Shown here: positions 26,701-44,407 of the stretch, piece by piece | Layout of the letters: every line of letters starts with the position of its first letter | Position numbering within the stretch: the first letter of the stretch is position 1 | Virus record (IMG/VR): IMGVR_UViG_3300025655_000017 | Direction: 5' to 3' (one strand) | Length of the DNA: 64,000 nt | Source of the DNA: a virus | Made by a program: the position numbers and the translations under genes | The notes under the pieces: generated by a model | Databases searched by the model: none | The model's input: only the letters and a program-made list of their open reading frames with translations | What the model was told of the DNA's origin: nothing

Positions 26701-26731
26701 TTGCATTATAAGAAAAAAGTTTTTATCTTTG
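26701..26731 (+). promoter_or_regulatory. Host-type promoter for tRNA array 1
   Basis: TTGCA..TATCTTTG; a second one ends at 26649. Confidence 0.75.
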
Positions 26732-26767
26732 CACTGTTGAAAGTCGAAAGACTATAAATTTTTAAAT

Positions 26768-26841
26768 CGGAGATTAGAGCAGTCTGGTAGCTTGCTTGGC
26801 TCATAACCAAGAGGTCATTGGTTCAAATCCCTATATGTGCA
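26768..26841 (+). tRNA. tRNA-Met(CAT), initiator-like, with a non-matching (chimeric) 3' end
   Basis: D arm and CTTGG-CTCATAA-CCAAG anticodon arm intact; after TTCAAAT the T and acceptor stems do not pair. Confidence 0.6.
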
Positions 26842-26878
26842 ACTACAAAAACTTTTTTAAAAACATAATTTAATAGAA

Positions 26879-26971
26879 ATGAATACAATGCTAAAAAATA
26901 CAAAGATTAATAATGCAGCGCAACCGCTTCATGGGGATCGTTGTATCTACGCACTAAAGGTTCATTTTTGA
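26879..26971 (+). CDS. Putative attenuator leader peptide 1 (MNTMLKNTKINNAAQPLHGDRCIYALKVHF)
   Basis: 30-codon ORF; its 3' end contains GCACTAAAGG, complementary to the downstream terminator arm. Confidence 0.75.
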   Translation: MNTMLKNTKINNAAQPLHGDRCIYALKVHF

Positions 26972-26991
26972 CAGAAAAAAAGTTTTACTTC

Positions 26992-27028
26992 AAAAAAACC
27001 CTTTAGTGCAAATTAAAGGGTTTTTTTT
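26992..27028 (+). terminator. Attenuator terminator upstream of tRNA array 1
   Basis: CCCTTTAGT-GCAA-ATTAAAGGG stem-loop followed by T8. Confidence 0.9.
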
Positions 27029-27128
27029 ATGTTCATTGACATAGTTGGATTATTTTAGAAAATATTAACTGAAAAAGGTAGTCAGTCCTTTGGAGTGCAA
27101 ACATTATTGCCACCAGTTGATACATAAA

Positions 27129-27204
27129 GGTCTATGGGGCTGCTTGGGTTGGCCGTCGGATTGTCTATCCGAATATCAGATGGGTTCAAATCCCATATAG
27201 ACTG
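27129..27204 (+). tRNA. tRNA-Asp(GTC)
   Basis: Cloverleaf; TCGGA-TTGTCTA-TCCGA. Confidence 0.88.
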
Positions 27205-27210
27205 CAACAT

Positions 27211-27290
27211 GCTCCTGTACGCAAAATAGGCAAAGCGGCCACACTTAGGATGTGGTGATTTATTTGTGGGTTCAAGTCCCACTGGGAGTA
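27211..27290 (+). tRNA. tRNA-Leu(TAG)
   Basis: Cloverleaf; CCACA-CTTAGGA-TGTGG. Confidence 0.9.
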
Positions 27291-27371
27291 CAATTTAATA
27301 AGTTTCAAGTAAAAGTGCTTACTTAAAGACAAATAGTGATTTGATCTTTTTAATGAAGATTATTAATATAT

Positions 27372-27445
27372 CTAGATGTAGCTTAAATGAATAAAGCACC
27401 ATGTTTGGGACATGGAAGATGTCAATTTGAGTTTGACCATCTGGA
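27372..27445 (+). tRNA. tRNA-Pro(TGG)
   Basis: Cloverleaf; CCATG-TTTGGGA-CATGG; atypical T loop. Confidence 0.85.
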
Positions 27446-27489
27446 CTTTTTTTGAAAAAGGAATCTCTAACGTATGTCGAAAGAGATAT

Positions 27490-27766
27490 AGGGCTGGCAG
27501 TTAGCCTATTGCAGTTTAAAAATAACTTTTATACGTTTTTTTAAACGCATAAAGAAATTAATATATAACTATTAATTTTCATACTGTTGGAAACCAATGA
27601 TTGCATATGAAAATGTAATCTTGTTTACTAAACACGTTTTTAGTGGTTGCACTGAACCCTTGATTTTTAGTAAAAAATCATAAACAGGCTACAAAGATCA
27701 GTTTATTAAAACTGTCAATAATAACGTTAGGTTAGCTGCCATTGATTAATTTCATAAAAAGCTCCA
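27490..27766 (+). ncRNA. Candidate multi-stem structured ncRNA inside the tRNA array (possibly a derived tmRNA)
   Basis: 27496-27508 pairs with 27728-27740 (13 bp including G-U); 27509-27519 pairs with 27706-27718; several internal hairpins. Confidence 0.55.
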
Positions 27767-27840
27767 CAGGAGTTAGCTCAGTTGGTTAGAGCGTCATCTT
27801 TACATGGTGAATGTCAATGGTTCGATCCCATTACTCTTGT
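27767..27840 (+). tRNA. tRNA-Val(TAC)
   Basis: Cloverleaf; TCATC-TTTACAT-GGTGA. Confidence 0.9.
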
Positions 27841-27852
27841 CATTTTAATTAT

Positions 27853-27928
27853 GGTCTATGGGGCTGCTGGATGTGGCCACTCCCTTGTCGCGGGAGAGAT
27901 CAGACGGGTTTGAATCCCGTATAGACCG
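27853..27928 (+). tRNA. tRNA-Asp(GTC), second copy
   Basis: Cloverleaf; CTCCC-TTGTCGC-GGGAG. Confidence 0.88.
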
Positions 27929-27942
27929 CTTTTATTATTTAT

Positions 27943-28015
27943 GGGGCATTGATGAAACTGGCTATCATATAACACCTGCAATGTTATTTTACGGGTTCAA
28001 ACCCCGTATGCTCCA
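27943..28015 (+). tRNA. tRNA-Ala(TGC)
   Basis: GGGGCAT/ATGCTCC acceptor with G3-U70; TAACA-CCTGCAA-TGTTA. Confidence 0.88.
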
Positions 28016-28070
28016 CCCAATTAATTGACTATCAGTGTTTTATGTTATGTCAGTTAATCTTTTACTTTAA

Positions 28071-28150
28071 TACTGAGATACCCCCCTTGACTGATATTCA
28101 AAATAAAGGTAATTGGGTGAAAATATGGATTCGACCCCCATTCTCAGTAC
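28071..28150 (+). pseudogene. Degenerate tRNA-like element
   Basis: TACTGAGA/TCTCAGTA acceptor-like stem and ATGG-ATTCGAC-CCCAT T-arm-like hairpin; no good D or anticodon arm. Confidence 0.45.
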
Positions 28151-28161
28151 TTTTTTTACTA

Positions 28162-28233
28162 GCAGGTGTGGTGTAATTGGTAACATACAATCCTTCCAAG
28201 ATTAAGTCGCAAGATCGTTCCTTGTCACCTGCT
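28162..28233 (+). tRNA. tRNA-Gly(TCC)
   Basis: GCAGGTG/CACCTGC acceptor, U73, loop CTTCCAA. Confidence 0.85.
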
Positions 28234-28246
28234 CTGATTTTTACAT

Positions 28247-28320
28247 GCTTCTATAGCTCAACTGGATAGAGCAATTCCCTACGAAGGAATAGGTTGTTAG
28301 TTCGACTCTAACTAGAAGTA
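28247..28320 (+). tRNA. tRNA-Arg(ACG)
   Basis: Cloverleaf; ATTCC-CTACGAA-GGAAT. Confidence 0.92.
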
Positions 28321-28331
28321 CAAATTTTTAA

Positions 28332-28403
28332 AGACCTATCGTATAATGGCTATTACCCCTGATTTTGAGTCAGGAAATTCCAGTTCAAATCTGGATAGGT
28401 TTA
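28332..28403 (+). tRNA. tRNA-Gln(TTG)
   Basis: Cloverleaf; CCTGA-TTTTGAG-TCAGG. Confidence 0.88.
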
Positions 28404-28458
28404 TTTTTTTTCTTAATATGTTGCATTTGTAGTTTATTTTATGTAACTTTACTTTAAA

Positions 28459-29184
28459 ATGAAAAAATGGAATTTAGAGGAAACAAATAAATTAAAACTA
28501 TATATAGCTCAAAGAATGAGCTATGAAGAAATTTGTTTAAAAATGAATAGGACTTTTAGTTCGGTTGGTAATAAAGCTAGAAAATTAAATTTAACATATA
28601 ATCCTAAAAAAAGAATTTATCGAAGTTTATACATTTGTCAAAATACAAAATGTGTAAAAACATTTGAAGGATACGTTATAGCTAACCCGAAATATTGTAG
28701 TAGTTCATGTGCTGCCCAAGTAAACAATTTAAATGTTCAAAGAAATAAACAAAAAAAAATAGATTTACCTCCAAAAATAAATAAACAAAAAATAATAACA
28801 CATAGTTTTTGTTTATACTGTAAGGCTGCTAAACATAATATCTATTCAACTTACTGTAGTGTAACATGCTCTAGTGAACATAAGAGAGACATTAAGATTG
28901 GATTATGGTTAAATGGAAAGCACAGTGGACATAAAGGAAAAACTTTACAATTATGTGGTTTTGTAAAATATCATCTGAGAAAAATCAGAGGCACAAAGTG
29001 CTGTCAATGCGGGTGGGATAAAAAACACCCTATAGATGGAGCTACATGTAACCATATAGATCACATTGACGGTGATGCATCTAACAATAAAATAGAAAAT
29101 TTGAGAATATTATGTCCCAACTGTCATTCATTAACAGCAAACTTTGGTTCACGTAACAAAAATTCTGCTAGAAATTTTAATTAA
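28459..29184 (+). CDS. HNH homing endonuclease with N-terminal HTH and Cys-rich zinc ribbons
   Basis: HIDHIDGDASNN..NLRILCPNCH; CSSSC and CSVTC repeats. Confidence 0.9.
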   Translation: MKKWNLEETNKLKLYIAQRMSYEEICLKMNRTFSSVGNKARKLNLTYNPKKRIYRSLYICQNTKCVKTFEGYVIANPKYCSSSCAAQVNNLNVQRNKQKKIDLPPKINKQKIITHSFCLYCKAAKHNIYSTYCSVTCSSEHKRDIKIGLWLNGKHSGHKGKTLQLCGFVKYHLRKIRGTKCCQCGWDKKHPIDGATCNHIDHIDGDASNNKIENLRILCPNCHSLTANFGSRNKNSARNFN

Positions 29185-29240
29185 CATTAGGATTAATCAG
29201 TTATTTTATTTATCTTTGTGTCAACAAAAACAAAAAAATC

Positions 29241-29507
29241 ATGAAATTATTTTATGTTTTATTATTGATTACTGTATTGAGCTTTACTAATTGTACCGAA
29301 CAAGCTAGAACAAAAGCCTTTGGAGGAACTATGACGATTGAACTGGAAAAGGGAGAACGTCTTATTGAAGCTACTTGGAAAGATACACAACTATGGTATT
29401 TAACTGAACCGATGAAAGAAGATTATGTGCCTAATACTAAAACGTTTAGAGAACAATCTTCATTTGGAATGATGGAAGGAAAAGTTGTATTTAAAGAAAG
29501 TCGATAA
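29241..29507 (+). CDS. Small lipoprotein
   Basis: Signal peptide ending FTNC. Confidence 0.75.
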   Translation: MKLFYVLLLITVLSFTNCTEQARTKAFGGTMTIELEKGERLIEATWKDTQLWYLTEPMKEDYVPNTKTFREQSSFGMMEGKVVFKESR

Positions 29508-29599
29508 TATTACATAAGAAATCAGATGGTAGTACATGTAAATAATATTAATCGTTCAGTTCAGCACAGAGGTTATGTTATTTAGTACTATCATCAAAT

Positions 29600-29723
29600 T
29601 CTCCGGTGGCTTAGTTGGTTAAAGCATCCCACTTTCCTGTCCATTTATTAAGACTAATCCGTTTTAGTTTTTTAAAGGCCAAGATTAATGGGAGGATCGT
29701 GGGTTCGAGTCCCACCCGGAGAA
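29600..29723 (+). tRNA. tRNA (probably Lys-TTT) with a 50-nt insertion in the anticodon loop
   Basis: Well-formed acceptor, D and T arms; TCCCA/TGGGA stem encloses 57 nt instead of 7. Confidence 0.75.
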
Positions 29724-29737
29724 CATAAAAGCTAAAT

Positions 29738-30658
29738 ATGTCAAGAAACGTACAACATTCTTTATTGGGAAAAGCTAAGGCTAATAAAAAAGATGAATTT
29801 TATACACAATTTAAAGACATAGAGGGTGAATTAAAACATTATGAACATCATTTTAAAGATAAAATAGTTTATTGTAATTGTGACGATCCTAATGTTAGTA
29901 ATTTTTCAAAATATTTTATTTTAAACTTTGAAAGATTAAAACTAAGAAAATTAATTTCTACTGGGTATAAGAAAGAAGGTAGAGGAGTTGGAAATCTTTA
30001 TAAAAAAGATCAAAATAAAATTATTCGTCTAGAAGGTAATGGAGATTTTAGAAGTGAAGAATGTATTGAATTGTTAAAAGAATCAGATATTGTAGTTACT
30101 AATCCTCCATTTTCTTTGTTTCGTGAATATGTAGGACAATTAATAGAATACAAAAAAAATTTTCTCATTATTGGCAATATAAATGCTCTTACCTATAAAG
30201 ACATTTTTAAGCTTATTAAAAATAATAACGCTTGGATGGGTATTAACATGGGAAGAGGAATCTCAGGGTTTATCGTTCCAGAACATTATGAGCTTTATGG
30301 GACAGAGACTAAAATAGACGATGAAGGAAATAGAATAGTCTCACCTAATAATTGTTTTTGGTTGACAAACTTAGATACATCTAAACGACACGAAGACATC
30401 GTTCTTTCAAAAACATATTATGGATGTGAAAGTGAATATCCAATATATAATAATTATGATGGTATCAATGTAAATAAAACAAAAGATATACCAAGGGATT
30501 ACAGGGGAGCTATGGGTGTACCAATAACATTTCTGCATAAATTTAATCCAGATCAATTTGAAATAATTAAATTTAGAAAGGGAAATGATGAAAAAGATTT
30601 ATCAATAAATGGCAAATGCCCATACTTTAGAATTTTAATTAAAAATAAAAGATTATAA
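29738..30658 (+). CDS. Adenine-specific DNA methyltransferase, EcoRI-MTase family
   Basis: KKDEFYT, VYCNCDDP, GDFRSEEC, VVTNPPFSLFREY, MGVPITF. Confidence 0.9.
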   Translation: MSRNVQHSLLGKAKANKKDEFYTQFKDIEGELKHYEHHFKDKIVYCNCDDPNVSNFSKYFILNFERLKLRKLISTGYKKEGRGVGNLYKKDQNKIIRLEGNGDFRSEECIELLKESDIVVTNPPFSLFREYVGQLIEYKKNFLIIGNINALTYKDIFKLIKNNNAWMGINMGRGISGFIVPEHYELYGTETKIDDEGNRIVSPNNCFWLTNLDTSKRHEDIVLSKTYYGCESEYPIYNNYDGINVNKTKDIPRDYRGAMGVPITFLHKFNPDQFEIIKFRKGNDEKDLSINGKCPYFRILIKNKRL

Positions 30659-30715
30659 AAATAGAAAGACAGAAGCTTGGCAGACAGGTGATATTAGTAA
30701 ATTATATTTTTATAA

Positions 30716-30789
30716 ACCCCTATAACTCAGTTGGTTAGAGTATCGTACTTTTAATGCGAGAGTCCTTGGTTCGAGTCCAAGTAGGGGTA
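30716..30789 (+). tRNA. tRNA-Lys(TTT)
   Basis: Cloverleaf; TCGTA-CTTTTAA-TGCGA. Confidence 0.92.
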
Positions 30790-30803
30790 CAAATTTTATT
30801 AAA

Positions 30804-30893
30804 GGGGGTGTAGCTGATGTGGTTTTAGCGGGAGACTGTTAATCTCTGATTGAAAATATTGAAATAAAGTGGGTTCGAATCCTACCGCCCCCG
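30804..30893 (+). tRNA. tRNA-Asn(GTT) with enlarged variable region
   Basis: GGAGA-CTGTTAA-TCTCT, G73, 21-nt variable segment. Confidence 0.8.
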
Positions 30894-30904
30894 CTTTTAT
30901 TTAT

Positions 30905-30978
30905 TCTGAGGTGGCTGAATTGGTTAAGGCACGTTTCTTGTAAAAACGGTTTTGCAGGTTCGAATCCTGTCCTCAGAT
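30905..30978 (+). tRNA. tRNA-Thr(TGT)
   Basis: Cloverleaf; CGTTT-CTTGTAA-AAACG. Confidence 0.85.
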
Positions 30979-31050
30979 CATTTTTTCTAAAATAAACTTG
31001 CAATTGTCATTAATTAATCTTATCTTTACAAAAATTAAAACACAATAATT

Positions 31051-31248
31051 ATGAAAACAATTTTTATTCTTTATTTTGCTACTATAGCTTTTGCACTTTT
31101 TGGTTGGGGGAGCTGTATTCACAAGTTTATCCAATGTGACTTTGACAGTACAAAAACAAGTTATAAGTCAGAAATTATCTATGGTGTTGGTACATTTGTT
31201 CCTGTGATAGGAGTTTTTATAGGATATATGAATGTAGGAGAAGGTTAA
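31051..31248 (+). CDS. Small two-TM membrane protein
   Basis: Hydrophobic 65-aa ORF behind a host-type promoter. Confidence 0.65.
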   Translation: MKTIFILYFATIAFALFGWGSCIHKFIQCDFDSTKTSYKSEIIYGVGTFVPVIGVFIGYMNVGEG

Positions 31249-31301
31249 AAAATTTTTTATAGGTATTTGCTTTTATGCATTTATCTCTGTATCTTTGTAT
31301 T

Positions 31302-31859
31302 ATGGAACAAATAAAATTACAACTTACAACAGGGAATGATAAACAATCACGCAGAGCGTTAGATTTTTATCCTACTCCACCTGAAGCGACTATAGCTTTA
31401 TTGGACTTTCTTAAATTAAAACCTACTACAGTATGGGAGTGTGCTTCTGGAAATGGAGCAATGGTAGATGTGTTAAAACAATATGGTCACGATGTAATAG
31501 CTACAGATATAATAAATGGGGAAGATTATCTTCTCATAAAAAGAGATGCTGATATTATTATCACTAATCCACCATTTAATATATCAGATAAGTTTATAGA
31601 AAAAGCAGTTAATGAATGCTCAATTGTTGCATTTTTGTTAAAAACACAATATTGGCACGCAAAAAAAAGATATAAGCTTTTTAAAAAACATTCACCATCA
31701 TACATTTTACCTTTAACTTGGAGGCCAGACTTCTTATATCAAGAACGAAAAAATGGAGCAAAAGGTTCTCCAACAATGGATGTTAATTGGAATGTTTGGA
31801 TAAAAGGTGATTCAACTACTAAATATTTACCTTTACTAAAACCAAATAACATTTTTTAG
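31302..31859 (+). CDS. Phage amino-methyltransferase (N6-adenine type)
   Basis: DFYPTP, WECASGNG, IITNPPF. Confidence 0.88.
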   Translation: MEQIKLQLTTGNDKQSRRALDFYPTPPEATIALLDFLKLKPTTVWECASGNGAMVDVLKQYGHDVIATDIINGEDYLLIKRDADIIITNPPFNISDKFIEKAVNECSIVAFLLKTQYWHAKKRYKLFKKHSPSYILPLTWRPDFLYQERKNGAKGSPTMDVNWNVWIKGDSTTKYLPLLKPNNIF

Positions 31860-31875
31860 TAAAAATTTAAAAATT

Positions 31876-32169
31876 ATGAGAATAACATTTGACGCATTAT
31901 TTTACTATGCAAGAGAACAATATGGTATTGGGTGGAATCCATGTAATGACATATTTTTTGGTGGCGTTCTTGATTATGGTTCATTCAATGAATATGATCG
32001 TTATTGTTTAATAGATCAATTTGACATTGAAGTAGGCACAAAAATTGATGGCGCATTAATAAAAGAATTATATAACAATAATCCGCGAAATGGAAAAATA
32101 GGTTACATGATAACCTATAATTTCATGATTGATAATAAAATAGATGATTTGTTCATTGATAATAAGTAA
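31876..32169 (+). CDS. Hypothetical protein
   Basis: 97-aa ORF. Confidence 0.6.
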   Translation: MRITFDALFYYAREQYGIGWNPCNDIFFGGVLDYGSFNEYDRYCLIDQFDIEVGTKIDGALIKELYNNNPRNGKIGYMITYNFMIDNKIDDLFIDNK

Positions 32170-32422
32170 AATAATATGGAATACTTTAGTGATTATAAGC
32201 TTTTTATAAAAAGTGTAAAAGATTTAACTCTTTAAAATGCTTCTGTACATAAATTGACAAAGCGGTTATTATTATTTTTTCAGCCCGACCGTTCCATCAT
32301 CAAATAATAATGGGGTGTAATCTGCGGAAAGATTAGTATACAAGGAATAAGTTGAATCAGTTATTTCAAAATCTTCTTTTAATAAACCTATGTTTGTATG
32401 TTCTGAAAGATATATTATCATT

Positions 32423-33160
32423 TTAATTATTACTTATAGCTTTAAAATCTTTTGTTTCTCTTTCTACATTTTTATATTTATCTTCACCTGTTTTGGGGAC
32501 TAATTTTTTGTTTACTATATGATAATTATCATCGTCTATTTCGCCTAAATTGGTATAATCAAAACCATGTAGAATTGCTATTTTTTGTACGGGGAATTTA
32601 CCATAAACTGTTGCATATGCTGCTTGCCCCACCACTTCTGTAAAAAGTGCGGGGATTGCTAAGTTAGGGGCTAATTTAGCATGAACATTAAATGCTGCAA
32701 TTTCACCTTTACCCCCAAAACCAACGTTTGCTTGTATGTGAGTTAAATAATCATGGATTGTTCGCATAACAATATTATCCTCAACGGAAAATATCGGATG
32801 CTCAGAATAATCTATATTTATTTTAAGTATACCTGTTTTTTGTACCTCTGATTTCATTTCAGGCTGTGTTTGATAGGGTTGACCTCCCTTTATATATTTG
32901 ACATCAAATTTTCGACCTAAGATATTAAATGTTTTACCCTCATATGATTTATGTTCACTGACAAATAAAACATTAACTTTTGATAATAATCTTTTAAATA
33001 ACGTATAATTTGAATTTTTTAATGAATCCCAATGTTTTTTAGCTCCGGGTTCTAATTCGGGGGCTTCCTCATAAGCTTTTGCAATTAATTCTAGATATTG
33101 AGAATAGTCACTTAACATCATTTTTTCACCTAATAGATTTTCATTTATATATATTATCAT
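32423..33160 (-). CDS. Hypothetical protein with HD..H motif, candidate head-packaged enzyme
   Basis: RTIHDYLTH..GE..A motif; N-terminal MIIYINENLLGE; late motif upstream. Confidence 0.65.
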   Translation of the reverse strand: MIIYINENLLGEKMMLSDYSQYLELIAKAYEEAPELEPGAKKHWDSLKNSNYTLFKRLLSKVNVLFVSEHKSYEGKTFNILGRKFDVKYIKGGQPYQTQPEMKSEVQKTGILKINIDYSEHPIFSVEDNIVMRTIHDYLTHIQANVGFGGKGEIAAFNVHAKLAPNLAIPALFTEVVGQAAYATVYGKFPVQKIAILHGFDYTNLGEIDDDNYHIVNKKLVPKTGEDKYKNVERETKDFKAISNN

Positions 33161-33188
33161 AATATAAAACTTTAAAATAAATAGTGTA

Positions 33189-33605
33189 ATGGAACAGTAT
33201 TTTAATGCATATTTTATAATAAATAAATTATCAGTAATTTTATCTCCTTATTTGAAAAATCAAAATATGAATAGATATTTGATAAATAATTCATATGATA
33301 ACTTTATGATTATAACTGCTTATGTTTCGAATGAAATAAATAAGATAGAAGAAAATAAAAAAAAGAATAAATTATTAAAAAAAGATATAAAAACTTATAA
33401 ATATTTTAAATGCTATGGAGCAGATAAAATAATAAATTATAAACATAGAGAGGATTCATTTATTGTATTTAATATCTCTAAACAGTATTCTTTAGAGTTA
33501 TGCGAAAAATATAAACAAGATTGTATACTGTGGGGAGAAAAAAATAAATTCCCTATTTTATTAGATAGATTTGGCAATGATTTGGCAGATATTAAAATAG
33601 TATAA
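33189..33605 (+). CDS. DUF3293-like protein
   Basis: FMIITAY..E.SFIV..LCEKYKQDCIL. Confidence 0.5.
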   Translation: MEQYFNAYFIINKLSVILSPYLKNQNMNRYLINNSYDNFMIITAYVSNEINKIEENKKKNKLLKKDIKTYKYFKCYGADKIINYKHREDSFIVFNISKQYSLELCEKYKQDCILWGEKNKFPILLDRFGNDLADIKIV

Positions 33606-33712
33606 AAGGAATAAAATTAAACCAATAATTATTTGTTATTTTAAAAGTTTATCAGTATCTTTACAGTATCGAAAAACTTATTTTATTTATTTAACCGATA
33701 AAAAAATTTAAC

Positions 33713-34393: not shown

Positions 34394-34495
34394 GATTAAC
34401 TCATCAAAAGAAAAAGCTATTAATGATAGTCTAAATTTGTTGTGAAAAATTTTATTACTTATGTTTTTAAGTTTCTTTATAAAAAAATAAAATAA

Positions 34496-34735: not shown

Positions 34736-34759
34736 TTTACAAACAAAACAAACCTTAAT

Positions 34760-36263: not shown

Positions 36264-36305
36264 TTTAATAAACGTTTCACTATATTTATATTTAAATAAA
36301 AAATA

Positions 36306-38555
36306 ATGAAAAATTTATTATTATCATTGTTGTGTATTTTATTTTCTGTTAGTTTGTTTTCACAGAATTTATTTACAAAAATACCAACAGTCAAAGTACT
36401 TGATTTAACAAAGTACGAAGTTTTAGCTATAAATAATAGTGTTTTAGATCAGATTAAGGAACAATCTAAAGATGATTTAGCAATGGTTATCCCATTTGAT
36501 AATTACTATTTAGATTTAATTCTTACTAAAGACGACATTGAATTACCAATGATAAAAACTTCTTCTGGTAAGTCAGTGTTAGTTGATGATTTACAGGCAT
36601 ATTCAGGTATTGTTGCAAATGATCCATTGTCGGCTGCAAATATTTATTTTCTGGATGGTGAAGTTATGGGGATTGTTACAAGAGGAGAAGAAAGAATTGT
36701 TCTTCAAAAACAGGATGCAAATTATATTGTTTTTGAAGATAAGAATGTTTTTAAAAATGAACCTTTTACTTGTGGCACCAACACTGATGGTATAACAGTT
36801 CAAAATTTAATAACAGAGTTTGCAGTAAGTGATGTATGTACAAAAGTATATCTTGAGGTTGATAATGATATTTTCAAGCAAAAAGGTAGTGTAGCCAATA
36901 CAGCTAAATATATTACAAGTTTGTTTGATCAAGTAAAACAACTTTATGCAAATGATGGCTTGAAAATTGCCATATCTGAAATGTTTATCTGGGATACTCC
37001 CAGCCCTTATGTTACAGGGGGTAGTGGTGAAATGTTGACACAATTTTATAATTATCGAACAGATTATAATGGTGACGTGGCACAATTACTTTCTTATAAA
37101 TCTAGTGGAGGTATTGCGTTTGTTGATGTTTTATGCAATACCAATAAAAAGGTAAAAACTTCTTTTTGTTCTATTCAATCTACATACTTAAATGTTCCAA
37201 CATATTCATGGTCAGTTATGGTTATGGCACACGAGTTAGGACATAATTTTGGATCACCCCATACACATGATTGTGCATGGAACGGAAATAATACAGCGAT
37301 AGATAATTGTGTTCAAACAAACTGTGCATCAAATGGCATTCCTTCAGCAGGTGGAACAATAATGAGTTATTGCCATTTAAACAGTGTAGGGATTAATTTT
37401 AGATTAGGTTTTGGTGAACAACCCTCTAACCTTATGAGAAGCCGTGTAGCCAGTGCTAATTGTTTAACCGTGTGTGATAACGGTGGAGGTGGCGATAATC
37501 CACCACAAGACACCTCTGGGCTTAATGAGTTAAGATTTACACTTAAATTAGATACTTATAGTCCAGAAATTTCATGGCAGTTAGTTGGTACAGATAAAAA
37601 GGTTTTCTACGAAGGAAAAAACTATAATAAAACACAGGCAAATCTTTATGTTTTAGATACTTTCTTTTTACCTAGTGGATGTTATTCTTTAATTGTTTTG
37701 GATTCATATGGTGATGGACTTTGCTGTAAGTATGGGAGTGGTTTTTATTCTCTGAAAAGCTTAGATGATAAAGTTTTAGCTTTTGGTAATGAATTTGGTA
37801 AAACTTCTGAGACAAGTTTTTGTCTTGAAGGGGCTAAAGAAGAATGTTTAATTAATTTTAATGAAAATAAGCTTTTTTCTTATGGTACTAACCAAGATGC
37901 AGGTACAGTTGAAATTATTGAAAATGGATATGGCATTATGTTGAAAGATAATGCTTGGAAAGCAATTGATTCAAAATATAACATGACAAATAACACTATG
38001 CTTAGTTTTGAATTTAAATCTAGCATAGAAGGAGAAATTCACGGTATTGGACTAGATGACAACGATATTATTTCATCTAATTTAACATTTAAAGTATTTG
38101 GTACACAAAATTGGGGTATTTTAAATTTTGATAATTATGTACTCAATCAAGAATATCGTTATTATGAAATTCCCATCGGGAAATATTATGTATTGAATGC
38201 TTCAAAATTGTTTTTTGTAGCTGATCAAGATGGTGGGACAAGAAATGGTAATTCATATTTCAAAAATGTCCGACTATACGAAGCGGGTGACTGCAATGTT
38301 GCTAACCCTACATCTAACATTGTAGAAAATAAAGTGGCAATAACAATTGATTCTAAAATTATGACTGTAAGTTTTTCTAATTTACAACATGATATTTTAT
38401 ATACAATCTTTGACGAAAAGAATTATATTACTGAAACAGGTGTTGTTAACAGTGAAAACTTTAAAGTTGATTTAAACGAATATCAACAAGGAGAATATAA
38501 GTTTGTTGTAACAAATTACGGTCTTGTCACAGAAAAGAATTTTACTATTGAGTAA
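36306..38555 (+). CDS. Secreted M12/reprolysin-like zinc metalloprotease with T9SS-type C-terminal domain
   Basis: Signal peptide, cysteine-switch-like FTCGT, HELGHNFGSPH, Met-turn TIMSYC, C-terminal G.Y.....K.F. Confidence 0.9.
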   Translation: MKNLLLSLLCILFSVSLFSQNLFTKIPTVKVLDLTKYEVLAINNSVLDQIKEQSKDDLAMVIPFDNYYLDLILTKDDIELPMIKTSSGKSVLVDDLQAYSGIVANDPLSAANIYFLDGEVMGIVTRGEERIVLQKQDANYIVFEDKNVFKNEPFTCGTNTDGITVQNLITEFAVSDVCTKVYLEVDNDIFKQKGSVANTAKYITSLFDQVKQLYANDGLKIAISEMFIWDTPSPYVTGGSGEMLTQFYNYRTDYNGDVAQLLSYKSSGGIAFVDVLCNTNKKVKTSFCSIQSTYLNVPTYSWSVMVMAHELGHNFGSPHTHDCAWNGNNTAIDNCVQTNCASNGIPSAGGTIMSYCHLNSVGINFRLGFGEQPSNLMRSRVASANCLTVCDNGGGGDNPPQDTSGLNELRFTLKLDTYSPEISWQLVGTDKKVFYEGKNYNKTQANLYVLDTFFLPSGCYSLIVLDSYGDGLCCKYGSGFYSLKSLDDKVLAFGNEFGKTSETSFCLEGAKEECLINFNENKLFSYGTNQDAGTVEIIENGYGIMLKDNAWKAIDSKYNMTNNTMLSFEFKSSIEGEIHGIGLDDNDIISSNLTFKVFGTQNWGILNFDNYVLNQEYRYYEIPIGKYYVLNASKLFFVADQDGGTRNGNSYFKNVRLYEAGDCNVANPTSNIVENKVAITIDSKIMTVSFSNLQHDILYTIFDEKNYITETGVVNSENFKVDLNEYQQGEYKFVVTNYGLVTEKNFTIE

Positions 38556-38573
38556 ATTTCTTTTTTCTTAATA

Positions 38574-38610
38574 AAAAACTCCCAGTAAATTGTTTTTATT
38601 GGGAGTTTTT
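38574..38610 (+). terminator. Intrinsic terminator
   Basis: AAAAACTCCCAGTAAA / TTTATTGGGAGTTTTT. Confidence 0.8.
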
Positions 38611-38762
38611 ATATTTTTTAAATTTCAAAAATATATATTTCTTTTATAGAGAAGGAATGTAATTTTTGTCCGAAAAAAGTGATAAATCATAATATTTAAA
38701 GAAAAAATTTGTATTTCTAAATATTTTTACATATTTTTGTTTTTTTTAAAGCAATATTTCAT

Positions 38763-39101
38763 ATGGAACTCACAGTAGGAATTATATTAGCGGAAAATAA
38801 CAAAATGTTATTAGTACATCCCACTGGGGCGAATTTTTGGAATATTCCTAAAGGAATACAGGAAGATGGTGAAACAGATTGGGTTACTGCGAAAAGAGAG
38901 TTGCATGAAGAAACTAATATTAATTTAGCTGATTATAACTATTCCATAATAAAAGAATCAGCTTTTTATAAATATAAAAAAAGATCAAAATACGCAAAAG
39001 CATTTTTGGTTATTTTAAATGAAAAAATAAAAAGAGAATTAAAATGTAATACATTTTTTGACAATTTTGACAAGGGTAATATTATTGCCACCCATGATTG
39101 A
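38763..39101 (+). CDS. Nudix hydrolase, possibly C-terminally truncated
   Basis: Nudix box PKG..E.GE....AKRELHEET. Confidence 0.85.
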   Translation: MELTVGIILAENNKMLLVHPTGANFWNIPKGIQEDGETDWVTAKRELHEETNINLADYNYSIIKESAFYKYKKRSKYAKAFLVILNEKIKRELKCNTFFDNFDKGNIIATHD

Positions 39102-39294
39102 ATTATTTAATTAGTTAACTTCTGATGTACAGCATCAGATTTTAGAACTAATAAAATCAGATATTATAACTGTGTTATAACAGTTGGAAGAAAAAAAACT
39201 TTCAAAACCAATTGATTATGAACAACATTTAGAAACAATTAATAATTTAATAAAAACTTGTAAAAATGAATTCATATCCAAACTTGGAAATTAG
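39094..39294 (+). pseudogene. Short gene remnant with in-frame TAG and TAA
   Basis: MIELFN*LTSDVQHQIL..VL*QLEEKK.. reads as one helical protein. Confidence 0.4.
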
Positions 39295-39544
39295 CTTAGA
39301 AGATCAATTGAATATTTGGGAAAAAGTTAATAAATGTAAAACATAAAAAGAGTTATCTGATATTATCTTAGAATTATCAGATAATACGGGTGCCATCAAG
39401 GGGAAATCATATTCTCATAATGCAGAGGTGATGGCACAAGAATGCCTTAATTTTTCACCAATCAACTATAATTCACTTACAAGAAAACATGGAATTAGAG
39501 CACAGGCAATGCTCATTTATTACTATAACCAAAAGAATAATTAA
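39266..39544 (+). pseudogene. Hypothetical gene with in-frame TAA
   Basis: ..VNKCKT*KELSDII..LTRKHGIRAQAM; stop at 39344-39346. Confidence 0.55.
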
Positions 39545-39596
39545 ATTGCTTGTATTATTAACATATTTAACTTATCTTTGTAAAAAAAATAACTAT

Positions 39597-40037
39597 ATGA
39601 ACATTTTAAAAAATTTGTTTTGTTCTTCAATCCAAAAAGAACTTGAAAATACTAAGCGTAAATTAGAATTGGTAACAAGTAATTATAATACTTTTATAGT
39701 TGCAGTAACGCAAAATCGAGATTTATCATCACAGAGAAATGTTGAAACATTAATTGATGCCGCAACTGAACAAGTAGATAGAACATCATTGAGTATCTAT
39801 GACTTTAAAAGTTGTATTCACTTACAAGTAGAAACCCTATTGTATCAGAATAGCTTAAAGAACCCTGTACAAAAAGAACTTCAACGACAAATTCAATTGT
39901 TGACTATGATGATGCAAATGGCAAAAAAAATTAATATGTCATTTTTCGATGATGACAATGCTTATGACATATATACTACTTTCGATGGAGATGTTGATAA
40001 ATGGTTATTCAACTTAAATATGGTAGTAGGGGAATAA
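39597..40037 (+). CDS. Hypothetical coiled-coil protein
   Basis: ATG at 39597 follows the promoter box at 39573. Confidence 0.65.
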   Translation: MNILKNLFCSSIQKELENTKRKLELVTSNYNTFIVAVTQNRDLSSQRNVETLIDAATEQVDRTSLSIYDFKSCIHLQVETLLYQNSLKNPVQKELQRQIQLLTMMMQMAKKINMSFFDDDNAYDIYTTFDGDVDKWLFNLNMVVGE

Positions 40038-40042
40038 TAAAA

Positions 40043-40119
40043 GGGGGAAAGCACCAAAGACACCCGCACGTCGGTTGGTGAAGGGCAAACAGCGGGCTAG
40101 TGCCCTGAAAGCTTCCCCC
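40043..40119 (+). ncRNA. Candidate three-way-junction RNA with kissing loops
   Basis: GC-rich island; three stems plus loop complementarity CCCGC/GCGGG; strand assumed from gene context. Confidence 0.6.
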
Positions 40120-40147
40120 ATTTTTTAATTTAATTAAAACATTTTTT

Positions 40148-40384
40148 ATGGAAACTGCTCTTATAGAAGAATTTCTTCAGAAAAAAAATGAATTTGAACA
40201 ACCCGAAGCAAATCTCTATAATCATTATAAACAAATAGTTTTAGAGAAATTAAAAACTGTAAAATGCGTAGAAGATATTATAGATATAAAAGAATTATTA
40301 AGGGTGGTTCCTTACTGTGCATCGAAAGTTCTTTTATTTAGAATGCTTATTTTAGCAGAAGAAAAATATAAAAATAACTTATGA
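40148..40384 (+). CDS. Hypothetical protein
   Basis: 78-aa ORF. Confidence 0.6.
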   Translation: METALIEEFLQKKNEFEQPEANLYNHYKQIVLEKLKTVKCVEDIIDIKELLRVVPYCASKVLLFRMLILAEEKYKNNL

Positions 40385-40587
40385 AAAATAATAAAACATT
40401 GCAAAAAGTCAGTGCTACTAAAGATGATAGTGGCCATTGGTATGTTATTCCTGATGGAATGCTTAGTGAATTTAGATCAGATGAAGATAATGCCTCTATG
40501 GTAGATAGTGGCCAATTTGATGATAAATGGGGAGGTTATAGAACTGGGGGAGATATAAATAAAGTACAACTATGGGCAGAAATTTAA
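40381..40587 (+). CDS. Hypothetical protein
   Basis: 68-aa ORF with DDSGHWYVIP. Confidence 0.65.
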   Translation: MKNNKTLQKVSATKDDSGHWYVIPDGMLSEFRSDEDNASMVDSGQFDDKWGGYRTGGDINKVQLWAEI

Positions 40588-40955
40588 ATATCACAAGTGA
40601 GGTATTAGATGGACTAGGATTTTCAGAATATTGGGATGAACATGAAATATGGGGAACAAGAACTTTTGTTTTTTCTAATGGGCAGCATTTTAGAATTATA
40701 GAACAAGAAGCAATAGACGATGACTCAGATGGTTATTCATTAGATGGTCAATATGTGGCTAATCATTTTTATTTTGGTGGATGGATGGCATGGCCTAAAA
40801 TAGATAAAGGGAAATATGATTTATTTTTCCTACATGAAATGTATGATTGTTTAAAAGAATGTTACCCTGATTGTTTAGAAGAATTTGTTTCTATTTGCAA
40901 AAATGTAAAAATGGGTAAATATATAGATGATTATCTAGAAAGAAAAGTAGTTTAA
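40572..40955 (+). CDS. Hypothetical protein
   Basis: 127-aa ORF. Confidence 0.65.
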   Translation: MGRNLNITSEVLDGLGFSEYWDEHEIWGTRTFVFSNGQHFRIIEQEAIDDDSDGYSLDGQYVANHFYFGGWMAWPKIDKGKYDLFFLHEMYDCLKECYPDCLEEFVSICKNVKMGKYIDDYLERKVV

Positions 40956-41148
40956 AAATATAGTAAACACTACATGTCTAATTTTTCAAAACATTGTATG
41001 TTACAATTATTAACTAAGCGTAATGGAGATGGACTAGCTGAAATTAGTAGCCTTGATTTAGCAAGGATTAAAAACATTTTAGATGAATCTTCTCTTGATT
41101 ATTGGCCAATAAATAATTTGCCATTTCATATTAAACTCTAATTAAATT

Positions 41149-41631
41149 ATGAAATACATAAAAGGTGATATTGTAAAGCTTTTTAACGAAGGTAATTATA
41201 GGATTCTTATACATGGAGCTAATTGTCAACAAAAGATGGGTAATGGCGTGGCTAAGGCATTAAAAAACAAATGGCCACAAATCTATGATGCTGACCTAAA
41301 TTATAATCCCGATAAGAAACCTTTTGAAAGATTGGGGGATTATTCATATGCAGTAGTAGATATAAACAATACCAGAAAAGTTATCATTAATGCATATACT
41401 CAGTTATACTATGGCAACGATGGCAAGCGATATGTTTCGTATGATGCAATAGATCAAGTTTTTGAGAAATTGAAGAATTATTTCATAAAACACAACATAA
41501 CTGATAAAAAAATAATTATACCTAAGATAGGATCAAAATTAGGTGGAGGTAATTGGGATGTTATTGCAGCAATTATAGATAATCACATGAAAGATTATGA
41601 TTTAACAGTTGTAGAGTTTGATGAAAACTAG
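41149..41631 (+). CDS. Macro domain ADP-ribose hydrolase
   Basis: KGDI, HGANC..MGNGVA, NAYTQ, PKIGSKLGGGNW. Confidence 0.9.
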   Translation: MKYIKGDIVKLFNEGNYRILIHGANCQQKMGNGVAKALKNKWPQIYDADLNYNPDKKPFERLGDYSYAVVDINNTRKVIINAYTQLYYGNDGKRYVSYDAIDQVFEKLKNYFIKHNITDKKIIIPKIGSKLGGGNWDVIAAIIDNHMKDYDLTVVEFDEN

Positions 41632-41636
41632 CGAAC

Positions 41637-41894
41637 ATGAAAAAACAATTAATATATTTATATCGAAAATATTTTATGGGTAAAACAATTATCTTTTTAA
41701 AAAACAATTGTAAAAATCCTATGGATGTTTTCATAGCTTTAAAAAAAATGATTCAAGATGTAAAGTTTTTTGGGTTCTTTGATTATTTTTTTATAGGAAC
41801 AATAAGTTTTTTTATGGGGAGAATATTATATTATAATCAATATATGGTTCTTTTTTTTTTATTTATATTTTTATCAACTGATTTTTATCACTAA
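41637..41894 (+). CDS. Hypothetical membrane protein
   Basis: F-rich hydrophobic C-terminal half. Confidence 0.45.
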   Translation: MKKQLIYLYRKYFMGKTIIFLKNNCKNPMDVFIALKKMIQDVKFFGFFDYFFIGTISFFMGRILYYNQYMVLFFLFIFLSTDFYH

Positions 41895-41908
41895 TTAAAA
41901 AATAAACG

Positions 41909-42124
41909 ATGAATGATCTTGCAGAAAAGTTAAAATATGAGGTTGTTAATAAATTAATGAAGAATGAACAATTAGTAGGTGAACTTTGTTTAGTTCAGGG
42001 TAAAAAATCATTCACCAGAAGAGAAATAGCAAATGAAATAAAAGAAAACTCTGAGTGGGGAATCACCTTTCTTGGTAACATATTAATGTTAGCTATTGAA
42101 ATAATGGCATCTGAAAAAGAATAA
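41909..42124 (+). CDS. Hypothetical protein
   Basis: 71-aa ORF. Confidence 0.55.
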   Translation: MNDLAEKLKYEVVNKLMKNEQLVGELCLVQGKKSFTRREIANEIKENSEWGITFLGNILMLAIEIMASEKE

Positions 42125-42149
42125 CAGAGAGAAACAACAAATTATAATC

Positions 42150-42563
42150 ATGAACGACATTTTAATAAATAACAAAGGTATTGACGTTATAATCCTTGAA
42201 GATGGTACAACATTAAAAATGCCATTAAAAGAAGCCCTTGAAATTATTATATCCTCATCTAACGATGAAGATACACAAGAATTACATATTAGTGCAGATA
42301 AGGGGCAAACGATAATTACTGGATGTATTATTAATAAAACCACTATCAAAAATAGTGAGGGATATAGTGATGAATTTTTACCTAATATTGGTGATAAAGT
42401 ATTAGCGGAAAATAAAATAGGAGAGATTATTGCTTTCAAAAATAAAAGTGAAGTTATTGTGAAATTTGCAAAACATTCCTTTGCTACTGTTCATATAGGT
42501 GAAGTAGTTTTCTTATCAAGGAAAATAAAATTTTTAGATAAGATAGTGAAATACTTTGATTAG
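42150..42563 (+). CDS. Hypothetical protein with C-terminal SH3/KOW-like beta module
   Basis: IGDKV....IGEI......VIVKF. Confidence 0.6.
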   Translation: MNDILINNKGIDVIILEDGTTLKMPLKEALEIIISSSNDEDTQELHISADKGQTIITGCIINKTTIKNSEGYSDEFLPNIGDKVLAENKIGEIIAFKNKSEVIVKFAKHSFATVHIGEVVFLSRKIKFLDKIVKYFD

Positions 42564-42607
42564 AAGAAAAAAAAGATTAACTTTACAGAAACAAAATAGG
42601 AATTATT

Positions 42608-42868
42608 ATGAATCAAATTAATCAAGGAGGGAGACGCATTTATCAATATGATGATCATGTTGTAATTGACGGGAAAACATATACTTTTCCAGATGAAGTT
42701 AAAAACAAACATATAAAAGATTTAGTCATAGATGATGAAGAAATCATTATTAATGGGTCTTTGCTTAATCTTTAGGATGGTAGCTTTACAAAAAAGATTA
42801 TTTTTTCTCCTGCAACATTAGTAAATAAGTTATTTTATTCATTTATTAATGTTATAAGAAAAAAATAA
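42608..42868 (+). pseudogene. Hypothetical gene with in-frame TAG
   Basis: ..IINGSLLNL*DGSFTKK..; stop at 42773-42775. Confidence 0.45.
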
Positions 42869-42930
42869 GATGCAAAATAATAGAAGAATTGTTTTTTTTG
42901 TTGAAATATTTTTTAAAAAAATAACTCACT

Positions 42931-43278
42931 ATGTACTCATCAATTGATTTTGATCAAAAATACAATAATTGTCAACTATCAATAGATGGCAAAGAAAAAA
43001 AATTATTCCAAAGTGGGGACTATGTAAAAGATTGGTTTAATCTTATGCATTACGCCATAATTAATTCTCAAGATGATAATATTGTTTTTTCATCTTCAAT
43101 AGATGAATTTATCACTGTCTTTAATGTAAAATTTCTATATTTAATTTTAGAAGATATGAGTTTTTCTAAGGCCGAAAATGATCTTCTGGTAGAAGAAAAA
43201 GGTATTATGTTTTTTGTCACTGAAGAACAATATAATTCTAATATTAGTTGGGGGGAATTTAAAAAAGCATATCTATAA
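42931..43278 (+). CDS. Hypothetical protein
   Basis: 115-aa ORF. Confidence 0.6.
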   Translation: MYSSIDFDQKYNNCQLSIDGKEKKLFQSGDYVKDWFNLMHYAIINSQDDNIVFSSSIDEFITVFNVKFLYLILEDMSFSKAENDLLVEEKGIMFFVTEEQYNSNISWGEFKKAYL

Positions 43279-43473
43279 GGGTTATAGGGAAAAGAATTTT
43301 TATTACCAATCGGATTAATAAAGATAATGTGTCACATTTTAAAATGTGATAAATTATCTGAGCAAGAATTAACAGTTGTATTTGAGGAGTTAAAATATAA
43401 GTAAAAAATATTTTCTCAAATAGTTGCATGATATATTTTTATGCATTATCTTTGTAGCGTTAAATATATACAT

Positions 43474-43545
43474 TCCCCCGATACTCGTATGGTAGGGTAC
43501 GCCGCTTTTAACGGTGGTATAGTGAGTTCGAATCTCACCGGGGGA
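43474..43545 (+). tRNA. tRNA with a 6-nt anticodon loop (CTTTAA); Lys-derived or ochre-suppressor-like
   Basis: TCCCCCG/CGGGGGA acceptor, perfect T arm, CGCCG-CTTTAA-CGGTG; own promoter at 43447. Confidence 0.7.
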
Positions 43546-43808
43546 ACAATAAAATATTTTTATGAATAAAAATTTTGTTAATACTTATGCAGTAACTGGA
43601 ACATTTCATGGATCAATTGTTATAGCAAATAGTGAAGGAGAAGCAAGAAGAATATTTCATGATTATTATAATGGTGAAAGTATAACAAGCATTTATATAA
43701 AAAATACTTTATGATAATTAAAGAACAATGTTTTTTAGAAAGAATAGTAAAAACTATATGCAATATAATGGACTATTTAAAATATTTAAATAAAAAATTA
43801 GAAAAAGC

Positions 43809-43839
43809 TTGCAAATACAAATAAAAAGACATATATTTG
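43809..43839 (+). promoter_or_regulatory. Host-type promoter for tRNA array 2
   Basis: TTGCA..TATATTTG, followed by CTATTTATA at 43871. Confidence 0.75.
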
Positions 43840-43883
43840 TATTGTAAAACAAAAAAAGAATTTTTTTAAACTATTTATAGGAG

Positions 43884-43967
43884 ATGAAAAATGTAACTGT
43901 ATATTATTATAACTTTAGTTGGTGCTTTTTTTCGGAGGAATCTGAAAAGACACTAGGGGTTATGTAA
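43884..43967 (+). CDS. Putative attenuator leader peptide 2 (MKNVTVYYYNFSWCFFSEESEKTLGVM)
   Basis: 27-codon ORF; ACTAGGGG near its 3' end can pair with CTCCTAGT of the terminator. Confidence 0.75.
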   Translation: MKNVTVYYYNFSWCFFSEESEKTLGVM

Positions 43968-43992
43968 TATAATGTTACAAACAAAGATTTAT

Positions 43993-44037
43993 AAAAATCT
44001 CCTAGTTCAATGTTTTTGAGTTAGGAGATTTTTTTTT
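43993..44037 (+). terminator. Attenuator terminator upstream of tRNA array 2
   Basis: AATCTCCTAGTTCAA-TGTTT-TTGAGTTAGGAGATT stem with T9; tRNA-Glu starts at the next base. Confidence 0.9.
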
Positions 44038-44111
44038 GTTGCCGTGGACGAAGTGGTTAAGTCGTGATATTTTCAATATCAAGGTTACGGGTTCGAACCC
44101 CGTCGGCAATA
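44038..44111 (+). tRNA. tRNA-Glu(TTC)
   Basis: Cloverleaf; TGATA-TTTTCAA-TATCA. Confidence 0.85.
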
Positions 44112-44138
44112 CGATATCTTCAAAAGAGAAGGTAAAAT

Positions 44139-44213
44139 GGTGAGATAGCTTATATGGTAGAAGCGCAGGTCTGAAAAACCTGAGATGGTCGGGATCGTTA
44201 CCCCCTCTCACCA
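44139..44213 (+). tRNA. tRNA-Phe(GAA)
   Basis: GGTGAGA/TCTCACC; CAGGT-CTGAAAA-ACCTG. Confidence 0.85.
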
Positions 44214-44230
44214 CATATTATTATTAAAAT

Positions 44231-44312
44231 GGGCGTATCGTATAGCGGCAATTACGGGAATCTGTAACATTCCTCTCATTTGAGTTCCAAGGTTCAAATC
44301 CCTGACCTACCG
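44231..44312 (+). tRNA. tRNA-Tyr(GTA) with a non-matching (chimeric) 3' acceptor strand
   Basis: GGAAT-CTGTAAC-ATTCC plus variable arm; 5' GGGCGTA cannot pair with 3' ACCTACC. Confidence 0.65.
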
Positions 44313-44319
44313 CAATTTA

Positions 44320-44407
44320 GGGAGGTAATGTAAGCTTGGTTGCTTACGCCAGACTGCTAATCTGTGCGCTCCTGAAAGGGAGGGGGGTTCGATACCTCTG
44401 CCTTCCG
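44320..44407 (+). tRNA. tRNA-Ser(GCT)
   Basis: GGGAGGT/GCCTTCC, loop CTGCTAA, long variable arm, G73. Confidence 0.85.

Follow-up and report, generated by a model that had tools for sequence, protein, structure and literature searches.

Candidate leader-peptide attenuators ahead of two transfer RNA arrays in a large phage genome

We analyzed a 64,000-nucleotide (nt) stretch of viral DNA (the window), which corresponds to bases 29786-93785 of the 132,834-base IMG/VR virus record IMGVR_UViG_3300025655_000017. Two arrays of transfer RNA (tRNA) genes in this window each lie behind a Bacteroidota-type promoter, a short leader open reading frame (ORF), and an intrinsic terminator (Table 1). We refer to these arrangements as locus 1 and locus 2. 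A first-pass annotation of the sequence had described this shared layout, with leaders of 27-30 codons, and we found every feature that it listed where it had placed it. It had also noted that the amino-acid contents of the two leaders are complementary, which is correct: leader 1 lacks only E, S, and W, all of which are in leader 2, and leader 2 lacks A, Q, P, H, D, R, and I. Its account of locus 1 was incomplete in one respect, as a degenerate tRNA-Met(CAT) gene lies between the promoter and leader 1. This gene (26773-26836) has lost the 3' strand of its acceptor/T-stem and is intact in a related contig (L017, described below). The record carries phage genes, including those for a major head protein and a Dda-like helicase, and its G+C content is about 28%. 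It is rated as 42% complete, so the phage genome is probably about 300 kilobases (kb). ORFs cover 84% of the sequence under genetic code 11, and the standard code fits. Stop-codon recoding, which might have caused short ORFs, was rejected because reading through TAG or TGA adds little coverage. Among GenBank phages, there were no close relatives, and the matches were limited to tRNA and methylase.

The promoters follow the pattern TTG-N17-22-TAnnTTTG, which has 24 copies on one strand and 26 on the other, versus about 11 expected per strand; the top-scoring copies are intergenic. Other promoter-plus-hairpin units are present elsewhere in the genome. There were just three hairpins as strong as terminators 1 and 2 in the 20 kb that we scanned, and these two terminators are among them. 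The T-run of terminator 2 (T9) abuts tRNA-Glu, which starts at 44038 (a gap of 0 nt). A promoter cannot fit between them, so tRNA-Glu, tRNA-Phe, and the next genes need read-through transcription. The first-pass annotation gave array 2 as Glu, Phe, Tyr, and Ser. The Glu and Phe genes are solid, and the Ser-GCT gene (44320-44406) is acceptable (it folds into a class II cloverleaf and scores 40 bits against the class II Sec model), but the Tyr-GTA-like element (44231-44316) is degenerate. Its anticodon, D, variable, and T arms are good, but the acceptor stem is mismatched, and the element is called neither by ARAGORN with default settings nor by Rfam, only by ARAGORN with relaxed thresholds.

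Table 1. Features of the two loci and of the leader on contig L043 (positions are those of the window unless a contig is named).
Feature	Position	Strand	Evidence or remark
Upstream Bacteroidota-type promoter-like site, TTG-N20-TATATTTG	26619-26649	+	Motif census
Locus 1 promoter, TTG-N20-TAnnTTTG, TTGCAT..TATCTTTG	26701-26731	+	Motif census; conserved in L017
Degenerate tRNA-Met(CAT) between promoter and leader 1	26773-26836	+	Rfam 35.5 bits, model positions 6-65 only; alignment; fold
Leader ORF 1, 30 codons, MNTMLKNTKINNAAQPLHGDRCIYALKVHF	26879-26971	+	ORF; frame kept in L017
Putative sensor block AAQPLHGDR, codons 13-21	26915-26941	+	Codon-match test; conserved in L017
Antiterminator 5' strand GCACTAAAGG, inside codons 25-28	26951-26960	+	Exact complement of 27000-27009; duplex P = 0.001
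Intrinsic terminator 1, 16 pairs + T8	26992-27028	+	Hairpin scan and folding
Spacer, 100 nt, terminator 1 to tRNA-Asp	27029-27128	+	Conserved; holds TTGACA-16-GAAAAT
tRNA array 1: Asp, Leu, Pro, Val, Asp, Ala, (degenerate Ile-position element), Gly, Arg, Gln	27129-28403	+	
tRNA genes Lys, Asn, Thr	30716-30979	+	Probably once in array 1
Locus 2 promoter, TTGCAA..TATATTTG	43809-43839	+	Motif census; conserved in L010
Leader ORF 2, 27 codons, MKNVTVYYYNFSWCFFSEESEKTLGVM	43884-43967	+	In frame, same start and stop in L010
Putative sensor block YYYNFSWCFFSEESE, codons 7-21	43902-43946	+	Codon-match test
Candidate antiterminator 5' strand ACTAGGGG	43952-43959	+	Pairs with CTCCTAGT, 43999-44006; weak
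Intrinsic terminator 2, 18 pairs + T9	43993-44037	+	Stem 43993-44033; T-run ends at 44037
tRNA array 2: Glu, Phe, degenerate Tyr-like, Ser-GCT	44038-44406	+	
L043 leader, 26 codons	L043:2742-2890		Saprospiraceae metagenome-assembled genome contig CBDICS010000061.1

Each leader contains a cluster of codons that, according to the first-pass annotation, matches the tRNAs that follow. As a null distribution, we took the ORFs of 15-60 codons that begin with ATG in any of the six reading frames of the genome (1010 in total), and we applied strict wobble rules. In leader 1, seven of the nine codons of the AAQPLHGDR block are read by array 1 (eight of nine with four-box wobble), and just 3 of the 1010 genomic ORFs reached this level. 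In leader 2, the Glu, Phe, Tyr-like, and Ser-GCT tRNAs read 10 of the 15 codons of YYYNFSWCFFSEESE, a level that 1 of the 1010 genomic ORFs reached (or 9 of 1010 if Tyr is excluded). As the first-pass annotation expected, this enrichment is for the leader's own array: if the leaders and arrays are swapped, then it disappears (P = 0.87 and 0.77). Because the block in leader 1 is GC-rich and the genome is AT-rich, we repeated the test conditional on GC content, which gave P = 0.006-0.007 (against GC-rich stop-free 27-mers and against shuffles of the block itself). Also, leader 1 samples seven of the eight identities in array 1 under strict rules (P = 0.007). When entire ORFs are compared to the genomic ORFs, P = 0.033 for leader 1 and 0.021 for leader 2; the corresponding binomial tests give P = 0.008 and 0.059 (0.022 for leader 2 if the Tyr-like gene is included).

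The first-pass annotation also placed an antiterminator in the last codons of both leaders. Locus 1 bears this out, and locus 2 has a weak candidate. At locus 1, GCACTAAAGG (26951-26960) lies 9 nt before the stop codon and can form 10 base pairs (bp) with 27000-27009, which is the 5' arm and loop of terminator 1. When the upstream region was shuffled with its dinucleotides kept, such a complement arose just once per 1000 shuffles (P = 0.001); the dinucleotide shuffles for locus 2 gave P = 0.086. The predicted energy of the antiterminator with its inner hairpin is -19.7 kcal/mol, versus -17.4 for the terminator, and nascent RNA with a free 5' strand is predicted to fold as the antiterminator even once the whole terminator is present. 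At both loci, the 5' strand sits 6-20 nt upstream of the stop codon, so a ribosome at the stop codon would cover it.

From these parts and their geometry, the competing structures, and the codon enrichment, together with the conservation and recurrence described below, we infer that the ORFs are translated, that ribosomes can stall within them, and that read-through is regulated. We think it fairly likely that both loci are leader-peptide transcription attenuators that give feedback on tRNA supply, and the phage would probably make both sets of tRNAs mainly when the matching codons are decoded slowly. Transcription would start at the host-type promoter and yield a transcript with the 27-30 codon ORF. 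If the ORF were read quickly to its stop codon, then the ribosome would mask the strand of the antiterminator that lies in the last codons. The strong terminator, 22-30 nt downstream, would then form and leave the tRNA array largely untranscribed. If a ribosome stalled in the central block, then the strand would be free to pair with the 5' arm of the terminator, and RNA polymerase would enter the array. Stalls that would leave the strand free are those at codons 13-21 for locus 1 and up to about codon 17 for locus 2. The two loci might respond differently to having no ribosome at all. At locus 1, neither a 1:2 pause hairpin nor an anti-antiterminator hairpin is evident, so the untranslated leader would give read-through. 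The untranslated leader 2 is predicted to fold on itself, and the terminator would then form. (A long hairpin that spans leader 2, with a z score of -6.7, could act as a trp-like 1:2 element, but the 5' strand of the hairpin is altered without compensation in L010, a relative of locus 2, and we leave this role as unproven.) The net effect would be negative feedback, with a set of tRNAs being made when the decoding of its own codons is slow, whether due to a mismatch in codon usage, host shut-off, or the cleavage of tRNAs. The simplest function for such an arrangement is feedback of this kind, acting on the supply of the tRNAs encoded downstream or on the speed of decoding.

We compared both loci to related metagenome contigs. 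Locus 1 has two relatives, L017 and L013, which are identical to each other in this region and about 82% identical to the window, and locus 2 has one, L010, with 93% identity. Leader 1 and its counterpart in L017 share their start, stop, and reading frame despite 18 substitutions and one 3-nt indel. Within AAQPLHGDR, there are just two changes, both of which are synonymous; immediately afterwards, codons 22-25 change from CIYA to RMRI. Leader 2 has nine substitutions in L010, with the same frame, start, and stop. Four of its five third-position changes are synonymous, and Tyr9 becomes Ser (AGT), which is still a codon for array 2. The frames are thus conserved, as the first-pass annotation anticipated, and together with the synonymous changes in the block, this gives indirect support for the leaders being translated. 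Another start-stop pair (ATG-TAA at 43891-43896, 7 nt past an AGGAG) lies in a different frame within the start of leader 2, and it is not conserved in L010.

The first-pass annotation further expected covariation within the antiterminator and codon content that tracks the array, and both were found in part. At locus 1, the pair 26951:27009 changes on both sides in L017, from G-C to A-U, and the pair 26952:27008 changes on one side, from C-G to U.G. One more position that is unpaired in the window is paired in L017, where the helix grows to 12 bp. The energies of the two structures in L017 (-18.4 for the antiterminator versus -15.7 for the terminator) are in the same order as in the window. 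At locus 2, one G.U pair of the candidate antiterminator becomes A-U in L010, and the terminator stem is unaltered. As for the codon content, the L017 leader matches its own array at 22 of 30 codons (P = 0.0003). That array also includes His and Ile tRNAs. In the window, the His tRNA has been deleted and the Ile position is degenerate: the acceptor stem of the element there (about 28073-28150) is good, but normal D and anticodon arms are lacking. As the phage in the window has lost tRNAs whose codons remain in leader 1, the tracking between leader and array is real but not strict. L031, a relative of the downstream gene (82%), has a rearranged array (Ser, Cys, Ser) and no recognizable leader.

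Competing antiterminator and terminator structures are common to all switches of this kind, including those that are read by something other than the ribosome. A protein or an uncharged tRNA might bind the leader RNA, in the style of PyrR or a T-box, and there is a weak match to a PyrR site at 26935-27030 (26 bits, versus a cutoff of 54). We consider this to be very improbable. Neither leader region matches a T-box or any other cis-regulatory family at threshold, and the 4-9 different tRNAs of an array are beyond the one specifier of one RNA. Furthermore, the integrity of the ORFs, the in-frame indel, and the codon blocks all point to translation.

Another explanation is that each promoter-ORF-terminator unit is an independent small gene, for a peptide or a small RNA, and that the arrays have promoters of their own, which at locus 1 would lie in the 100-nt spacer. 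The spacer (27029-27128) is about 95% conserved with L017, which is higher than for the N-terminal half of leader 1, and it contains TTGACA-16-GAAAAT. Also, the unit in L017 has its own product, as the tRNA-Met that it bears is intact, and similar promoter-plus-hairpin units lie elsewhere in the genome. On the other hand, the spacer contains no promoter motif of the Bacteroidota type, and a promoter would not fit at locus 2 or at three of the unrelated loci described below (L014, L043, and L044). The peptide is not conserved beyond the codon block, and an independent gene would not explain why its codon content is specific to the array. We view this explanation as distinctly unlikely. The predicted fold of the spacer is not significant (z = -0.25), its sequence is not repeated elsewhere in the genome, and a match to the DUF2693 RNA is weak and far under the threshold.

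We also scanned with a tRNA-Asp pattern, which is independent of the leader's sequence. We retrieved phage-like contigs with leaders of the same design but unrelated in sequence (L014, L019, L036, L043, and L044, of which L043 and L044 are from Saprospiraceae metagenome-assembled genomes). Further exact tRNA patterns gave no matches when used as queries. Across the seven sequence-unrelated loci, the leader ORF has 23-42 codons, and the stop codon is always 22-33 nt before the core stem of the terminator. At four of the seven, 0-6 nt separate the end of the T-run from the first tRNA (0 at locus 2 and L014, 4 at L043, and 6 at L044). At four of the five loci that were first examined, the best complement to the terminator is in or just before the last few codons of the leader. 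The P values for the antiterminator over the seven loci are 0.001, 0.086, 0.057, 0.025, 0.057, 0.24, and 0.0005, and by our own calculation, Fisher's method combines them to about 6e-7. For the codon match across whole ORFs, Fisher's method gives P = 1.6e-4.

L043 is the clearest example of the design. The tRNAs behind its terminator are Arg-TCT, His, Gln, Glu, Pro, and Arg-ACG, and a block in its leader (AGA CAT CAA GAG CCG CGA CGT) corresponds to these six tRNAs. No other run of seven such codons occurs at that locus, whichever frame is read. The stretch that follows the block, NVRNTTMV, matches the second cluster.

Several results weigh against the view that these leaders are attenuators. 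At locus 2, the antiterminator is a weak one of 8 bp (P = 0.086); the nascent RNA is predicted to fold into it, but the complete terminator outcompetes it (-24.8 versus -14.0). The spacer at locus 1 is better conserved than the N-terminal half of leader 1 and could be a separate promoter. The codon match is also looser than the first-pass annotation had it: this phage has no tRNA for the His and Ile codons in leader 1, the Tyr-like tRNA gene is degenerate, and Ser-GCT does not read two of the Ser codons (TCG and TCT). Codons for Cys and Trp are likewise unmatched. The sizes of the windows in the cluster statistics were chosen after the data were seen, which is why we also computed the whole-ORF statistics, and those P values are modest at single loci. 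There is one informative relative per locus, and outside the central block, the changes in leader 1 have no third-position bias, as would be seen in non-coding DNA. Under strict wobble, there is no codon enrichment in L014 (P = 0.82) or L044 (P = 0.72). Finally, the arrays of G001 (a 101-kb phage record with 40 tRNA hits), cr111_1 (which is crAss-like), L005, and L015 lack the leader-terminator design, so the design is lineage-restricted.

Some of these results would be expected if the terminators were constitutive. They might be partly leaky attenuators or processing hairpins that set a fixed low level of the array, in which case the ORFs would not be sensors and their codon content would be a by-product of composition or chance. 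The weak antiterminator at locus 2, the lack of codon enrichment in L014 and L044, and the N-terminal parts of the leaders, which evolve like non-coding DNA, fit with this explanation, as does the fact that the GC-rich block of leader 1 also falls within a predicted hairpin. Against it, the enrichment vanishes when the leaders and arrays are swapped, and the combined P values are 1.6e-4 for the codon match and about 6e-7 for the antiterminator. The best complement lies in the last leader codons at most loci, the distance from stop codon to stem is constant across unrelated sequences, and locus 1 has both a compensatory change and an in-frame indel. Overall, we judge constitutive terminators to be unlikely and favor attenuation.

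The first-pass annotation went further and cast the loci as on-demand sensors for counter-defence. In the most far-reaching form of this idea, a host anticodon nuclease or phage-induced shut-off would deplete particular tRNAs, ribosomes would stall at the matching codons of a leader, and exactly the replacement array would be induced. The two leaders divide the amino acids between them, so the two arrays would be induced independently. The setting is that of phage tRNA genes that replace cleaved or depleted host tRNAs, as reported for PARIS (PMC11464382) and for retron and other tRNA-targeting systems (PMC11555353). We see a role in counter-defence as possible but doubtful. Nothing in the window links the leaders to a defence system. 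A purpose in sensing anticodon nucleases is speculative, and feedback would explain the same wiring more simply.

Downstream of array 2 is a homologue of the RNA ligase RtcB (45319-46353, + strand). It is colinear with an intact 344-amino-acid gene in L031, with 84% identity, but two in-frame stop codons interrupt it. The first is TAA at 45382 (CAA in L031), and the second is TAG at 45814 (TGG in L031). The same split, with gene calls of 89 and 153 amino acids, is seen in independent assemblies (L023-L026). The homologue is probably a pseudogene of a tRNA-repair enzyme, and it is the only nearby hint of a role in counter-defence.

Between tRNA-Gln and tRNA-Lys, the window encodes an HNH endonuclease and an EcoRI-family adenine methyltransferase (28459-30658). 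In L017, tRNA-Lys and tRNA-Asn follow tRNA-Gln after only 425 nt, so this segment looks like a mobile insertion that split one array, and the Lys and Asn tRNAs were probably once part of array 1. An Rfam tRNA match at 29600-29723 is 124 nt long and may carry a 50-nt insert. Other genes in the window include a histidine-kinase-like protein with PAS and HATPase domains (23245-24336, + strand) and a phrog_388 nucleotidyltransferase (58977-60044, - strand) that is possibly a CCA-adding enzyme. Flanking proteins were for the most part of little use as synteny anchors. A search from the HNH protein (28459-29184), which is mobile, ended at an unrelated phage; the family of a 158-amino-acid protein is widespread and adjoins tRNAs only in near-identical contigs and in L031; and the PAS/HATPase protein and an M12 peptidase have almost no relatives. 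Outside of the window (G000:C1), a repeated motif (CCAAAGAGTTAACGTAA..AGCGTTGTAAAATA) with a T-run follows two host-type promoters, at about 120650 and 122660 on the minus strand, and there is a non-coding stretch of about 550 nt upstream of a tRNA-Asn. These motif units and the non-coding stretch are possibly small RNAs.

Phage tRNA genes are usually treated as constitutively expressed, whether they are seen as aids to codon usage or as decoys for defence systems that cleave tRNAs. Full-text searches of the literature gave no account of tRNA genes, in phages or outside them, that are controlled by leader-peptide attenuation, and searches by term found no paper that links phage tRNA genes to a leader or an attenuator. 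If our interpretation is correct, then ribosome-mediated attenuation would extend to tRNA genes, with the ribosome itself as the sensor of tRNA supply and a separate multi-codon "roster" leader for each array. Large phages of Bacteroidota-type hosts would have a feedback circuit that is simple and testable. Such a circuit would also suggest compact sensor parts that report the decoding speed of chosen codons, as well as a new annotation rule for short ORFs ahead of tRNA arrays.

The closest known systems are the attenuators of amino-acid operons in enterobacteria, with the leaders trpL, hisL, leuL, and pheL and the multivalent leaders thrL and ilvL. Like these attenuators, both loci have a short ORF with clustered regulatory codons and a terminator just downstream, before the regulated genes. 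The ORF remains open in the relatives L017 and L010, and the clustering of cognate codons is imperfect for Tyr, His, Ile, Cys, and Trp. At locus 1, as in the known attenuators, the antiterminator is mutually exclusive with the terminator, and its 5' strand is at the end of the ORF, where a terminating ribosome could mask it; at locus 2, the candidate duplex is 8 bp with P = 0.086. The position of the ribosome is the signal in the known systems and would be here as well. The multivalent thr and ilv leaders read several amino acids together, as we propose for the phage leaders. The differences are that the known leaders control biosynthetic enzymes and contain a run of one codon, whereas the phage leaders have many codons that occur once or a few times each, as a roster of the array. 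The genes downstream are tRNAs rather than biosynthesis or synthetase genes, and this sets these loci apart from the known families of amino-acid operon leaders. They are also in a phage with Bacteroidota-type promoters and have no sequence similarity to the known leaders: neither leader region matches the His, Trp, Leu, or Thr leader families in Rfam at E <= 1. T-box riboswitches, which are typical of Firmicutes, resemble these loci in that a terminator/antiterminator switch is tied to the status of tRNA and controls translation-related genes. A T-box, though, binds one uncharged tRNA directly and needs no ORF, and neither leader region matches the T-box family (Rfam RF00230) at the gathering threshold or at E <= 1. 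In the E. coli pheST attenuator, the pheM leader controls phenylalanyl-tRNA synthetase and provides feedback on the supply of charged tRNA. This is also leader-peptide attenuation of a component of the translation apparatus, but pheST controls a synthetase and reads one amino acid, whereas the phage loci would control the tRNA genes themselves and would read several identities at once.

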